From positions 3,596,001 through 3,660,000 of the forward strand of contig CP089277.1 in NCBI GenBank assembly GCA_023920165.1: a DNA stretch of 64,000 nt, given 5' to 3'. This stretch comes from Curvularia clavata. Taxonomy: Eukaryota. This document shows positions 32,348-36,793 of the stretch, one piece after another. Position numbers and translations under genes: made by a program. The notes below the pieces were generated by a model, which saw only the letters and a list, made by a program, of their open reading frames with translations, was not told the DNA's origin and made no database searches. How positions within the stretch are numbered: the first letter of the stretch is position 1; each line of letters starts with the position of its first letter.

Positions 32348-34201
32348 CTACGCTACTACCTCAGTCATCAAGTCCTCCGGCCACCTCGGCTGATCCACCC
32401 CATTCCCTCGCGTTCCTACGTTATATCTCAGTTCCACACTGTCTTTTGGGTACTGAGCTATGGGTTTGACGCCCTTGATATCTTTGCCAATTGCACCCGA
32501 ATGTCGTGTTTCAAAGAATTCTGGCTTGAACAGCACAGCACTTGAATTCGTCATGAGCATGTTCATATAGGGGCCACTCAAAGCCAGCATGTTGTGGTAG
32601 TGACGGAAGACGCGGTGCCCGTTGCGTGTCCAGACATCCTCCCAGACGTCCTTTGGATATGTACCGACGCTGTTCACGAGCCATTGAGAGTAGTAGTTCA
32701 AGGCAACCTGAAAATGTCAATTTTGTGGATTTTTCGAGGACGAAAAGACTTACATCGACTTGATAGGAACCGCCTTCAGCGCCTCGCCTCAAGAGCGCGC
32801 TCAATACACTGATAGCACCAGCAATACCAGTGCAATAATCGCTGTTTGGGAAAACTGGTGTCACGGGCTCGTCATGGCCCATCGCTCGTCCAAACTCTGT
32901 GGATACACCACAGCATGCATCTGAGATCTGCTGCCATCCGCTCCGGTGCGCCCAAGGACCGTACCAACCGTAGCAATTCTCGCGCACAACAATCAGTCCC
33001 CTTTCACGATCCTTGGTCAGCTCTAACAAGCCTTCGACGGAAAATCCGTACTTGTCGAGGACGCCAGGACGATATCCTTGGACAACGACATCTGCCTCTC
33101 GGACCAAGGCCCGTAACTTTTCTCGATCTTCTTCGTCCCGGAAGTCAAGATGAGCATTCCATTTTCCCCAGTTGAGGTCGGAATGTAGGGATGAGTAGTC
33201 TGCAAGATGTTCTGCTGTAATCCTCATCACTGACGCCCCGAGCTCAGCCAGTGAGCGCGTGATGGCTGGCGCAGCGATGATACGCGTCAAGTCGACTACT
33301 TTGAGCCCAGCGAGCGGTCTCTTTGCAGAAGTTTCAGGACTATCAGGCCACCAGCACGGAGGCTGTTTCTCGTTCTTGCTTTCGTGAATCTCGTAAAGAC
33401 CAACATGAGCATTTGCCTTGCCGTGCTCGCTTTTCTTGAATTCTTCGGTTGTCCAGCAAATGGTGCCAGCTTGCTTGTATTCATCAGAGGCCAAGCGCTG
33501 TATCTCTTGTGAGTCGAGCTGCGCAACCTTTTCTGCGTATGGTTTCAATAGCGCATCAACGGAGTCTGAGTCCATGTAATGTGGAAGCCCGAGCATGTCT
33601 TGTGTCGGATCAGGATTTATCGAACCGTGCAAGTGGAAGTATCTGCCGTCCTTGCACTTGTATATGTTGGTTGCCGCAACACGGTACACACTAGTCATTG
33701 AATCATGCTTGTCAAAATTTTTGAAGTATTGTTCATATTTGCTCCGGTTTGCTTGAGACAGCGCGTTTGCACCGGCAATGTTCTCGCCCTCGGGGTCAAT
33801 GCGGCTGAGATAGACGGAGAAAAAGAACAGTTGTGCATGATCGCTGAAGGAACTTTTAGCATCGGAGACTCTGGACGTTCGTGGTCAACTCACGTGTCAA
33901 TGACCACTTCTTGGGGCTCTAGGTTGTATTTCCTTTTTAACAAAACATTCACCATGGCAGCTTCCAGGCCCTTCAGTGCTGAAACACTCTCGGCGAAGCG
34001 CCAGTTGACGGGTATACTAGGCTTATCGCTGCCTTTGAACTGGACCCTCTTTGCACATTCTTCAATCTCATCGGGAAGGGTAGGGGTAATGAGGGGATTC
34101 TTGAGTAAGCCATTACTGAGAACGCTTCGTGCTTCACGTGGAATCGAGTAGGTGTTCAAGGTGCCGTTTCTAAGGCCGCTGGTTTGCTCATTGGTCGCCA
34201 T
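32348..34201 (-). CDS. Family III CoA-transferase (CaiB/BaiF), long fungal type, 585 aa; exons 34201-33894, 33843-32754, 32707-32348
   Basis: Motifs RPLAGLKVVDLTRIIAAP, LAELGASV, DLNWGK, ADVVVQGYRPG, YGWYGPWAHRSGWQQISDA and PNSDYCTG (putative catalytic Asp). Introns of 50 and 46 nt; CDS 1758 nt. Confidence 0.93.
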
Positions 34202-34644
34202 TTTTTAGTCTGCAGCATAATGGGGGTCGCCGCATGACTTTTATACTTTAAACGCGGTTGTAGGCACATGAACACCACATGGTGGCGCGTCGCACCAGCC
34301 TCATCATCCCTCGGTCAATCGGCTAACCTACCAGCCAGATTTGGTAACATATTACCAAGTGGTTGAGCTTTCATTGGCGTTGGGTATAGTTGATTCGGCA
34401 ACTCCTAACTTGGGCAAGTCATAGGTTTCGATTCATGCCTCGGGCCATCATCGGAGGGGTTAACTATACCCGAACCCCTCTATGTGCCTGAACCATTAAA
34501 GTTCAACGCAAGTTGGATGTGAGAGGAACTTGAACTTTTTCAAAAGTGGGGTCTTCAATCCATATATAGCAGTGGCCACTTTCACTGAACAAAGCACGTA
34601 GCGGCTCTGTAAATCTGCCTTTAGCACTGAAGCAGCACCTCAAC
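34202..34644. promoter_or_regulatory. Bidirectional promoter with two CCTCGG (FarA/FarB-type) motifs, extra CGG triplets and inverted repeats
   Basis: CCTCGG at 34309-34314 and 34438-34443; GGGTATAGTT at 34382-34391 with its reverse complement AACTATACCC at 34462-34471; TA-rich elements near each gene (ttttatac ~34240, catatata ~34561). Confidence 0.55.
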
Positions 34645-36793
34645 ATGGCCGGACCCACTTACAATACGAGGTGGACGTCTCAGCGCGGGACCCGCCCCGT
34701 ACGCATAGCGAATTGTTCTGGCTTCAGAGGCATGACGGTTCCCTTGCCCATCAAATATCTAAAACTAACATGTCGCAGCCGACCCTGGCTATCACATGCG
34801 CTACCAAGCGGAGTTTGGAGATGTCGACTTCATCACCGGGGACTATCTTGCTGAAGTGAACATCGCCGAGAATGCACAAGCATATGCAGCGGGTACCCAT
34901 CCCGGCTGGGAACAGACAGCTTGGGACGGCATCGAGCAGACGATTGATCTTTTGCAGCAAAAGAGAATCAAGGTCATAGTCAATGGCGGCGCGCATAATC
35001 CCAAGGGATTAGCGGAGAAGGTCCAGAAGCTCGTGAGTGACTCATGTTCAATGCAGCAAGCTTGCGGTCGATGAAGTGCTGATAGCATACTAAGGTGACA
35101 AGTAAAGGCTATGACCTAAAAGTGGCATATGTACTAGGCGACAATGTAATGGAGGAGATGTCAGACATCAAGGAGAAAGGTCTACCACCGCATCTGGATT
35201 CCGACAACACTGAAGTCACAATTAATGATCACACACTCGACGTGCTGAAGGCTGATAAACCAATCGTTAGTGCGCATGTATATCTCGGAGCTCGAGAAAT
35301 CGTAGCCGGTCTTGAACAAGGCGCCGACATCATCATCGCCGGTCGCGTTGCAGATGCCAGTCCCGTCATTGGCGCAGCATGGTGGTGGCACCAATGGCGC
35401 TCAAACGACTTTGACCAACTTGCCGGGGCACTTGTTGCCGGTCACCTGATTGAGTGCAGTGCCTATGTGACGGGCGCGAACTTTGCAGGCTTCTATGAGT
35501 ATCCACTTGATGATTTGTACGATATGACATTTGGAATTTCAGAAATTGAGAAAGACGGTTCATGTGTCGTTACGAAACATGATGCGAAGAAAGGTTTCGT
35601 TACTGAGGATACCGTCAAGTGTCAGTTCTTGTATGAGTTACAGGGCAATATCTACTTGAACAGCGACGTCAAAGGCATCCTGGATGAAGTGCAGGTCAAG
35701 AATGAGGGGAGGAACAGGTATGTGCATTTCTCTTCTACCCAACCATCCAGTCATAAATCAAGAAGCTAACAGCAATGGCAGAGTCCGCGTGTGGGGTATC
35801 AAAGGAGCTCCACCTCCACCCACGACGAAACTGGCCATCTTCTATCAAGCGGGCTACCAGTCTGAATGCGTCATCAATGCAACCGGATACGCTACTAAGG
35901 AGAAGTTTGATCTCTGGGAATATACGATGAAGTTTGGGCTGAAGAAACTAGGTATTCTGGACAAGTTTGATATTCTGGAGTTCCAACGCCTTGGAGTGCC
36001 AGAGGCCAATCCAAAGAGCCAGCTTCGGAGTACCACTTCTTGTAGAGTCTTTGCCGAATCAAGCGACCCCAATGTGAATTTGGGACTAGCGAGTGTAATT
36101 GGAGAGTTTAGCATGCAGCATTTCTCCGGCTTTCACCTTTCATCGGACCTTCGAACAATCGTACCACGGCCGTACTTGAGTTACTATCCAGCAATATGGC
36201 CACAGGACAAGCTTATGACATCGATTAACATCCTCGAAGCTGGAGGGACAGCGAACGAGGTGCACACGATGAAGATCAAGACTTCGCCACCACCGATGGT
36301 GGAAGACTTGGCTAAAAGGCAAAGTTACGAGACCAAGGATCCCGTTGACCTTAAATTTTTTGGCCCAACTCAGCCTGCTCGGCTCGGTGATGTCGTTCTT
36401 GCACGCTCAGGGGACAAAGGCGGCAATGCAAATATCGGGTTCTTTATTCCCACTGCACTCCCGTCATCATACCCGCATGCATCCCCGCTGTACAAAGAAT
36501 GCTGGGACTGGCTTCGCACTTACCTAACTATGGACAAACTAAAGGATATGTTTGCTGATAGTTGGGAAGACACGTTCTTCATTGAAAGGTGTGAGTTTGA
36601 AGGAATCATGGCTGTGCACTTTGTAGTGTACGGGGTGTTAGGCAGGGGTGTGAGTGGAAGTAGTAGACTGGATTCGCTCGCAAAGGGAATTGCTGATTGG
36701 TTGAGGGATTGCGTTGTGGATGTGCCAGTGAAGTTTTTGGAAGGTAGGGTCAAAGGGAAGGCTATTTCGGGGCGATATGCAGCAAAGTTATAG
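34645..36793 (+). CDS. AtuA / DUF1446 (acyclic terpene utilisation family) protein with PTS1, ~657 aa; exons 34645-34729, 34779-35032, 35095-35717, 35782-36793
   Basis: Motifs RPVRIANCSG, DFITGDYLAE, VNGGAHNP, AHVYLGA..GADIIIAGRVADAS, AGHLIECSAYVTG, QFLYELQG..YLNSDV, ARSGDKGGNANIG and SSRLDSLAKG; ends ..YAAKL. Intron 1 is GC-AG. The intron 2 acceptor could be 9 nt earlier, still in frame. Confidence 0.92.

Follow-up and report, generated by a model that had tools for sequence, protein, structure and literature searches.

A 64,000-nucleotide stretch of Curvularia clavata contig CP089277.1 (the window) holds two genes that read away from each other, and the question they raise is what a family III CoA-transferase and an AtuA/DUF1446 protein might do together. 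The CoA-transferase gene (CaiB/BaiF-like, long fungal type; 32348..34201, minus strand) has three exons (34201-33894, 33843-32754 and 32707-32348; gene model and spliced contigs) with introns of 50 bp (33844..33893) and 46 bp (32708..32753), and encodes 585 aa ending in EVVA. The AtuA gene (34645..36793, plus strand) has four coding exons (34645-34729, 34779-35032, 35095-35717 and 35782-36793) and encodes 657 aa ending in YAAKL; its first intron (34730..34778, 49 bp) is of the non-canonical GC-AG type. Contigs of public runs show the spliced joints of all five predicted coding introns, this one included: run X1 has the full set, X5 and X8 have subsets, and X9 has none. The arrangement described in the earlier note, divergent ATGs (34201, minus, and 34645, plus) separated by 443 bp and an AtuA ending in AKL, is thus confirmed on spliced, transcribed genes. 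The inter-ATG region (34202..34644) contains the common divergent promoter and the 5' UTRs. Since an additional GT-AG intron of 56 bp in the 5' UTR of the AtuA transcript (34546..34601, plus strand), absent from the prediction, was seen spliced in X1 and X8, the real common promoter is shorter than 443 bp. A single X1 contig covers both genes, which does not demonstrate one transcript. From sequence, structural models and analogy, we assign a probability of roughly 0.55 to the reading that the pair, under Far control and mostly peroxisomal, is a module that rescues dead ends in the beta-oxidation of branched or alicyclic dicarboxylic acids.

Of 33 informative non-redundant fungal loci, 26 have a CoA-transferase gene next to AtuA, 23 of them head to head; where the upstream sequence reaches 2.5 kb or more, the count is 21 of 28. 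These counts are not independent, since the loci and the homologues are themselves related. The linked loci span several ascomycete lineages, the neighbourhoods change around the pair, and the adjacency occurs in three orientations. Accessions were consecutive in all five of the named pairs, which had been pre-selected. The genes are unlinked at seven of the 33 loci, and also at L078, L039 and L086, which lie outside the inclusion rule. The AtuA genes of L035/L060 and of L084 stand head to head with different transferase paralogues; judged by sequence, the pair has re-formed with paralogous transferases. Conserved divergent linkage across fungi, as the earlier note had envisaged, is borne out by these loci, and we consider it virtually certain that the two genes form a conserved pair. 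Our literature search found no description of such a fungal pair. Among the recurrent neighbours of the 33 loci and 64 chosen flanking ORFs, no linked carboxylase, acyl-CoA dehydrogenase, hydratase or ligase was seen, nor any third common neighbour beyond close relatives; a third conserved cluster gene was dismissed on this ground. An AtuA–CaiB fusion, likewise set aside, occurred in none of 31 long matches, which is weak evidence, with 7,999 candidates scored.

The common promoters share a hexamer. CCTCGG was their top 6-mer, present in 21 of 24 against 4.8 expected and in 23 of 93 control upstream windows, and 29 of 33 sites point the same way. The window carries two copies on the plus strand (34309..34314 and 34438..34443), matching the FarA/FarB (CTF1)-type motif (PMC5068947). 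This site belongs to a regulon of fatty-acid and peroxisomal genes, as described in PMC5068947 and PMC4117967, and the pair is like that regulon in that CCTCGG stands above background in its common promoter and is kept across its range. Neither gene is named as a Far target in the passages and supplements searched, those of A. nidulans and A. niger included. On the strength of the motif, Far control of the pair is very likely. The recurrence of adjacency, PTS1-like tail and promoter motif in other fungi indicates that the arrangement is more than chance.

The genome's second AtuA gene (C4:4.047-4.050 Mb) belongs to another clade, ends in GRI, and has neither a transferase match in its region nor a CCTCGG in the 700 bp upstream; it was dismissed as a further pair member for these reasons. 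We also considered that the two genes of the window are no more than co-regulated, two members of the Far regulon that share a promoter and serve separate pathways and compartments. Their targeting signals differ, some loci are unlinked, and divergent pairs are common in compact fungal genomes. We nevertheless regard this as improbable: the pair persists while the flanking genes all change, it does so in three orientations and after re-formation with paralogous transferases, and in the bacterial thnP-thnQ-thnS precedent both enzymes act in one pathway.

The nature of the lyase is suggested by its fold. AtuA scored 270, 106 and 83 bits per exon to PF07287 (cut-off 22.8) and 56 bits to PF23544 (cut-off 27); the ESM Atlas returned family names only for the queries. 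A model was made of the orthologue P0107, which shares about 64% identity with the window's AtuA; it matched 9EVF_A with E 1.4e-16 and 9ERQ_A (CmlA) with Z 25.8 (rmsd 4.5, 389 residues aligned; next Z 4.9). The window's own C-terminal domain, a ferredoxin-like domain with an RSGDKG motif (36347..36739, plus strand), matched 9ERQ_B (CmlB) as a model with Z 9.7 (rmsd 2.6, 101 of 105 residues aligned; next 5.7), and family comparison equates DUF4387 with CmlB. The profile match was 99%. By fold, then, the modelled fungal AtuA is a one-chain fusion of both citramalate lyase subunits. CmlAB of Raoultella planticola is a citramalate lyase (activity as stated in bioRxiv 10.64898/2026.01.16.699985), and the PDB titles of the Cml structures (9ERQ, 9EVF) name AMPPNP-citramalate and ADP-pyruvate. 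The earlier view that no reaction had been defined for the AtuA family is accordingly out of date. Both proteins have the GRxxD, xxxEC, LYE and TxK positions, and RSKNAG of CmlAB occupies the position of the fungal RSGDKG. In contrast to CmlAB, which is CoA-independent and encoded in a methylaspartate cluster, the fungal protein is eukaryotic, has one chain instead of two, bears a PTS1 and is paired with a CoA-transferase, and identity is about 15%. As a single chain with about 14-15% identity it falls outside the two-subunit CmlA-type subfamily. From the models and these analogies, lyase chemistry is likely for AtuA. The literature searched describes no nucleotide-dependent Cml-class C-C lyase in eukaryotes.

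The partner matched PF02515 with E 9e-37, and the active-site Asp was conserved in all 25 alignment rows listed. In the window it is Asp438 (within FPNSDY; codon 32838..32840, minus strand), aligned with the Asp that the solved family III enzymes conserve and that we take to be catalytic in them. The match takes in about the first 200 of the profile's 366 positions, and at 585 aa the protein is longer than the canonical ~400 aa; hhalign gave no assignment for its N-terminal half, a duplicated or permuted module included. Scores to the Frc, CaiB, succinate-glutarate and mesaconate transferase equivalogs were 28-67 bits, against NCBIfam cut-offs of 413-750. Bacterial orthologues of the long transferase were absent at E 1e-30 from 301 Actinomycetota genomes, a search that had no positive control and shows little. 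A link to the acyl-CoA transferase of the Fusarium FDB cluster was not found in the passages of PMC4726666 searched and was dropped.

The Cml comparison raises the alternative that AtuA acts on a free hydroxy acid, such as citramalate, an alkylmalate or alkylcitrate, or a 3-hydroxy-3-methyl acid freed from a stalled CoA ester, and that the transferase only recycles CoA from the dead-end ester to the incoming acid. The sole solved family member does act on free citramalate, CoA is often passed back and forth between substrate and product by family III transferases, and such a route tolerates enzymes in different compartments. It appears unlikely all the same, because the fungal AtuA is of the long, fused type, which in bacteria occurs among acyl-CoA enzymes and fused to acyl-CoA synthetases (21 of 31 long fusion proteins), and its sequence is distant from the split CmlA type (it matched the 9ERQ_A profile with E 4e-7, against 1e-83 for a true CmlA-type protein).

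The proposed rescue of stalled CoA esters has a parallel in the thnP-thnQ-thnS genes of the anaerobic naphthalene operon of strains N47/NaphS2, which encode a CoA-transferase, ThnP, and the AtuA-like ThnQS (PMC12016498). ThnP is reported to shift CoA within one diacid molecule, and ThnQS to cleave a tertiary 3-hydroxyacyl-CoA to a 3-oxoacyl-CoA (PMC12016498; the lyase result is there partly cited as unpublished). There, as in the fungi, the CoA-transferase gene adjoins the gene(s) for an AtuA-like lyase, a likeness of gene order; unlike the fungal pair, the Thn genes come from anaerobic bacteria, where a large operon also encodes a dehydrogenase, a hydratase and a thiolase, and the lyase is split.

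The AtuA of the Pseudomonas/Thauera atuABCDEFGH cluster has the same Pfam families and fused architecture and about 600 aa, but in fungi the gene's partner is a family III transferase, and no carboxylase, dehydrogenase, hydratase or ligase is linked to it. AtuA has been tentatively named an acetate-releasing HIHG-CoA lyase (PMC4847356), and the Atu lyase step has been given to LiuE instead (PMC4097962). Bacterial long AtuA genes lie beside a biotin carboxylase in 63 of 80 loci and beside a family III transferase in one; no HMGL-like lyase was found near them in the 80 loci, in a search without a positive-control cluster. A dispersed, peroxisomal version of the Atu pathway for beta-methyl (terpenoid or phytanate-like) acids, in which the transferase would load CoA and an unlinked peroxisomal carboxylase and a hydration step would follow before AtuA released acetate, could draw on these bacterial carboxylases and on a third acyl-CoA carboxylase of this genome (G000:C5:748.7-753.0 kb). 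Its alpha and beta genes are head to head with one CCGAGG between them, alpha ends in ARL, and beta has a PTS2-like RLAQVSSHI. The beta chain is PCC-like, however, with a median identity of 27% to AtuA-linked bacterial carboxyltransferases against 46% for the genome's own MCC beta, and we rejected the enzyme as an orthologue of geranyl-CoA carboxylase. As it is moreover unlinked to AtuA, and the Verticillium AtuA (VdAtuA3) knockout had no citronellol phenotype (PMC13399572), we consider this pathway quite unlikely. That knockout result, with the lack of a linked carboxylase, dehydrogenase or hydratase in fungi, leaves the terpene substrate suggested earlier unsupported.

The Ala-Lys-Leu end of the window AtuA (36782..36790, plus strand) is of PTS1 type and closes a variable tail. 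The C-terminus is [KRH][LM] in 102 of 116 complete close homologues and the strict [SAC][KRH][LM] in 50; Leu occupies -1 in 94% and Lys/Arg -2 in 89%, whereas positions -5 to -12 are hypervariable, with no residue above 38%. A conserved end after a variable tail argues for selection on the PTS1. The proposal of a conserved PTS1 therefore holds within the close clade but not universally, as the signal is missing in 8 of 20 linked loci, Alternaria-like close relatives among them. Readthrough of the stop codon would yield a canonical PTS1 only in L048 and a weaker RKL in L086 (26 tails, the window included), and was dismissed as a general rescue. The transferase, with its EVVA end, lacks a PTS1, as the earlier note had stated, and also a PTS2, and no targeting signal was seen in any of 43 homologues. 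By their signals, the two proteins appear to sit in different compartments.

The only fungal AtuA-family protein with experimental data that we know of, VdAtuA3 of Verticillium dahliae, is reported as mitochondrial and regulatory: VdAtuA3::eGFP co-localises with MitoTracker and binds VdNuo1, and no reaction or transferase partner is given in the parts of PMC13399572 examined. The window AtuA could by extension be a non-catabolic partner of mitochondrial complex I with an incidental AKL, and its first 29 residues are indeed Arg-rich and acid-free. This seems very improbable. The VdAtuA3::eGFP notation suggests a C-terminal tag, which would mask any PTS1; that paper nowhere speaks of peroxisomes; this genome's second AtuA, of another clade, has no PTS1; and the pattern of tail conservation argues for selection. 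In this species we think it highly likely, from sequence, that AtuA is peroxisomal.

The rescue of beta-oxidation dead ends would proceed as follows. FarA/FarB-type regulators would bind the motif seen in the promoter and switch on both genes. The transferase may attach CoA to a dicarboxylic acid with a branched or alicyclic skeleton, or shift it between the carboxyls as ThnP does; the CoA ester of such an acid is the substrate we somewhat favour. Unlinked dehydrogenase and hydratase of beta-oxidation would yield a 3-hydroxyacyl-CoA whose tertiary hydroxyl should prevent further oxidation. By analogy with Cml, ThnQS and Atu, AtuA with bound ATP probably activates the arm that bears the free carboxylate and breaks the C-C bond at the carbinol, which would release acetate or open the ring and leave a 3-oxoacyl-CoA for thiolase. 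In C. clavata and in most of its close relatives the PTS1 would place the cut inside the peroxisome, and the transferase may be cytosolic or carried in. Given the shape of a C-C-cutting enzyme and the fatty-acid-type motif, the pair probably clears branched or cyclic acids on which ordinary fat breakdown stalls. A wider reading is tentative, and we would not expect all of it to hold: an undescribed fungal peroxisomal beta-oxidation branch for beta-branched and alicyclic acids, all under Far control, that might combine a nucleotide-dependent Cml-class C-C lyase, an intramolecular CoA-transferase and perhaps also a biotin carboxylase of the peroxisome, with some lineages (L048) perhaps keeping peroxisomal targeting by stop-codon readthrough.

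If true, the rescue of stalled acids would provide fungi with a route past tertiary-hydroxyl dead ends, to which branched or cyclic acids from plant lipids, terpenoids and hydrocarbons give rise. Newly solved lyase chemistry would reach eukaryotes, and the only published fungal AtuA study could be read differently. Fungal genomes commonly carry AtuA/DUF1446 genes, whose annotation gives no function; for one AtuA clade our reading proposes a reaction, a partner, a regulator and a compartment, so that it can be checked with the two proteins in purified form and a small set of substrates.

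The window DNA is fungal and belongs to the Pleosporales; in a protein database search, the searched exon had an identical match named Curvularia clavata, and the named matches after it came from Stemphylium, Neocucurbitaria, Bipolaris and Alternaria. The CoA-transferase gene (34201-32348, minus strand) has two introns and encodes 585 residues ending in EVVA, with a match to CoA_transf_3. The AtuA gene (34645-36793, plus strand) has three coding introns, the first of the GC-AG type, and encodes 657 residues ending in YAAKL, with matches to AtuA and AtuA_ferredoxin. Among four public sequencing runs, contigs of X1 contained all five coding introns, those of X5 and X8 subsets, and those of X9 none; a 5'-UTR intron (34546-34601) was also seen in run contigs. 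These joints show that both genes are transcribed and spliced as modelled. Gene models and spliced contigs thus bear out the divergent pair of the earlier note, with 443 bp between the start codons and the tails EVVA and AKL. The GC-AG intron (34730-34778) has perhaps been overlooked in many database models of window-type AtuA: P0021, P0045, P0055 and others begin with MRYQAELG and lack the first exon, which bears a conserved Gly-rich loop. The database transferase model P0327 (window 32348-32400) is a 599-residue form with a differing C-terminus; that of the 585-residue form agrees with homologues. The flanking genes (24738-43302) look unrelated to the pair: an FG-repeat nucleoporin-like ORF (by eye), a lactamase-B-like gene, a GNAT acetyltransferase, an SPRY protein and a CTLH/RING protein.

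From the best 80 of 87 confirmed matches to an AtuA orthologue alignment, we obtained 79 metagenome loci, of which 58 were non-redundant and 33 informative, that is, with a transferase match or at least 2.5 kb of upstream sequence. A family III transferase adjoined AtuA in 26 of these 33, head-to-head in 23, in tandem with a DUF3425 gene between in two, and convergent in one, so the linkage that the earlier note had proposed to look for in other fungi is indeed conserved. Requiring 2.5 kb or more of upstream sequence at every locus gave 21/28 (hand count); three more unlinked loci lie outside the counting rule: L039, L086 and L078, the last of which was merged with L083 (93% identity). AtuA identity to the reference orthologue P0107 ranged from 68% down to 45% across linked loci. 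Accessions were consecutive in 5/5 named pairs (pre-selected for both genes on contigs of equal size), locus tags were consecutive in two additional pairs, and 29 contig sizes were common to the AtuA and transferase match tables (77 and 96 entries). Neighbouring genes recur among close relatives only, indicating that the pair travels alone. The DUF3425 gene at L042:5931-7076 and L044:6099-7358, between transferase and AtuA, is divergent from AtuA.

In a quick AtuA tree of 73 rows (SH-aLRT support only, midpoint root; lineages of metagenome loci inferred from tree position), all 21 linked rows fell into one clade with Babjeviella, Xylaria, Fusarium, Aspergillus multicolor, Dactylellina and Dothideomycete proteins. 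Two AtuA loci were detected in the genome, that of the window and an unlinked paralogue in a clade separate from the linked rows. This second AtuA (L008/L009, G000:C4:4.047-4.050 Mb) ends in GRI and lies beside an amino-acid permease-like gene, without a transferase. Pairwise identities of AtuA and transferase were correlated (Spearman 0.57, 210 non-independent pairs). At L035 and L060, AtuA is head-to-head with another transferase paralogue, grouping with the genome's unlinked L186, and at L084 with a third (long branches flagged); these paralogues are 32-36% identical to the main type. Judged from sequence, this points to partner replacement or old duplication. The genome has three further long-type transferases; at L186 (2264-3334 and 3928-5742), a paralogous long transferase is head-to-head with a 3-hydroxyacyl-CoA dehydrogenase-like ORF (by eye). 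The window's transferase keeps the family's conserved Asp (Asp438) and scores far under every characterised family III equivalog; its Pfam match spans only approximately the first 200 of 366 profile positions, and profile comparison gave no assignment for the N-terminal half of the protein.

CCTCGG occurs twice in the window's intergenic region (one of eight patterns tried). In an unbiased scan of all 6-mers, CCGAGG/CCTCGG ranked first, being present in 21 of 24 divergent intergenic regions (the window's own included) versus 4.8 in doublet shuffles; since the loci are related, p-values overstate this enrichment. Controls gave 23/93 for upstream windows of other long ORFs and 4/18 for downstream windows, and the orientation is the same at 29 of 33 sites. 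Passages of two papers give CCTCGG as the CTF1/FarA/FarB site of fatty-acid genes (PMC5068947, PMC4117967), and the sites of the pair are candidate Far sites. That the two genes are co-regulated and share nothing further appears quite unlikely to us.

A single solved sequence was matched by the AtuA family profile: subunit A of citramalate lyase (CmlA; 9ERQ/9EVF). The P0107 model (pLDDT 89) matched 9EVF_A with E 1.4e-16, and its residues 10-474 matched 9ERQ_A with Z 25.8 (next match, 4.9). A model of the window AtuA's own C-terminal domain (pLDDT 94) matched 9ERQ_B with Z 9.7 (next, 5.7). DUF4387 is CmlB, and profile comparisons agreed with the fold matches (99% and 70%). As modelled, the window AtuA is therefore CmlA plus CmlB, with the same folds as CmlAB but in a single chain and at ≈ 15% identity. 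From the titles of the Cml PDB entries, we infer by analogy that ATP may activate a free carboxylate in AtuA. A free-acid, Cml-like route seems to us rather doubtful.

Biotin carboxylase was present in 63, carboxyltransferase in 62, acyl-CoA synthetase in 10 and a family III transferase in one of the best 80 of at least 595 bacterial AtuA loci; ten queries, with no positive-control cluster, yielded no HMGL-like lyase in these 80. Nearest neighbours (n = 126, hand count) included 21 acyl-CoA dehydrogenases and 20 enoyl-CoA hydratases. AtuA was joined to acyl-CoA synthetase in 21 of 31 long fusion proteins and to parts of a carboxylase in three; none of the 31 was a fusion with CaiB. By analogy, these neighbourhoods support AtuA as a probable lyase on CoA esters. 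Bacterial long AtuA often has an MDMPI_N/DinB-type gene directly beside it (≈ 19/126 neighbours; L095-L168).

One paper has AtuA as HIHG-CoA:acetate lyase in a list of 'characterized or tentatively identified' enzymes (PMC4847356), and a passage of another gives this step to LiuE, not AtuA (PMC4097962). A dispersed Atu-like route would employ a PTS-bearing carboxylase on contig C5, which we consider unlikely. That contig carries a head-to-head alpha/beta pair (L188:688-5042; G000:C5:748.7-753.0 kb), a third biotin-dependent acyl-CoA carboxylase. It is neither ACC nor MCC; the beta chain is PCC-like and has a PTS2-like RLAQVSSHI, the alpha chain ends in ARL, and the 452-bp spacer holds one CCGAGG. 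The pair is a candidate peroxisomal carboxylase. The fungal arrangement resembles bacterial thnP-thnQ-thnS, where, as described in PMC12016498, the intramolecular CoA-transferase thnP lies beside the AtuA-like lyases thnQ and thnS, which convert a tertiary 3-hydroxyacyl-CoA to 3-oxoazeloyl-CoA (in part unpublished results).

We surveyed the C-termini of the 120 best AtuA homologues, mostly Pleosporales, 116 of which reach the end motif. A strict [SAC][KRH][LM] end was found in 50/116 and [KRH][LM] in 102/116, with Leu at -1 in 94%, Lys/Arg at -2 in 89% and variable positions -5 to -12, a pattern that fits selection for a putative PTS1. Of the linked loci whose AtuA C-terminus is reliable (n = 20), six had a canonical, five a variant (ANL three times, PKI, PNL) and one a cryptic PTS1, and eight, including Alternaria-like L019, had none (hand count). 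Conservation of the signal, another point of the earlier note, thus holds for most close homologues but is not universal. At L048, the stop near 9700 reads EIL-TGA followed by in-frame QSRL-stop, a candidate cryptic PTS1 via stop-codon readthrough. The transferase's want of a PTS1 was confirmed: neither a PTS1 nor a PTS2 pattern occurred in 43 near-full-length homologues (the ends of a few models are wrong). This compartment mismatch would be compatible with activation in the cytosol followed by ABC import, and equally with piggy-back import. A mitochondrial, non-catabolic role of AtuA, as PMC13399572 has it for VdAtuA3, strikes us as highly improbable.

From the observed gene structure, linkage, motif enrichment, tail conservation and folds, we propose the following route. 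Far regulators would induce both genes, and the transferase would load CoA onto, or flip it on, a branched or alicyclic diacid; a diacid substrate would account for the fungal need for a transferase without a linked carboxylase. General beta-oxidation enzymes would make a tertiary 3-hydroxyacyl-CoA, which nucleotide-dependent AtuA would cut to acetate (or an opened ring) and a 3-oxoacyl-CoA, to be thiolysed in the peroxisome. The genome has enoyl-CoA hydratase-family loci L192, L194 and L197, with ORFs ending in SKL, SKM and SKL; these are candidates for the hydration step. In the largely open-access literature searched, neither the fungal pair nor its Far sites nor a peroxisomal AtuA was found described. 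By analogy, the presumed chemistry and the enzyme pairing are already known from bacteria; what appears to be undescribed is a eukaryotic, PTS1-bearing two-gene form under predicted Far control.
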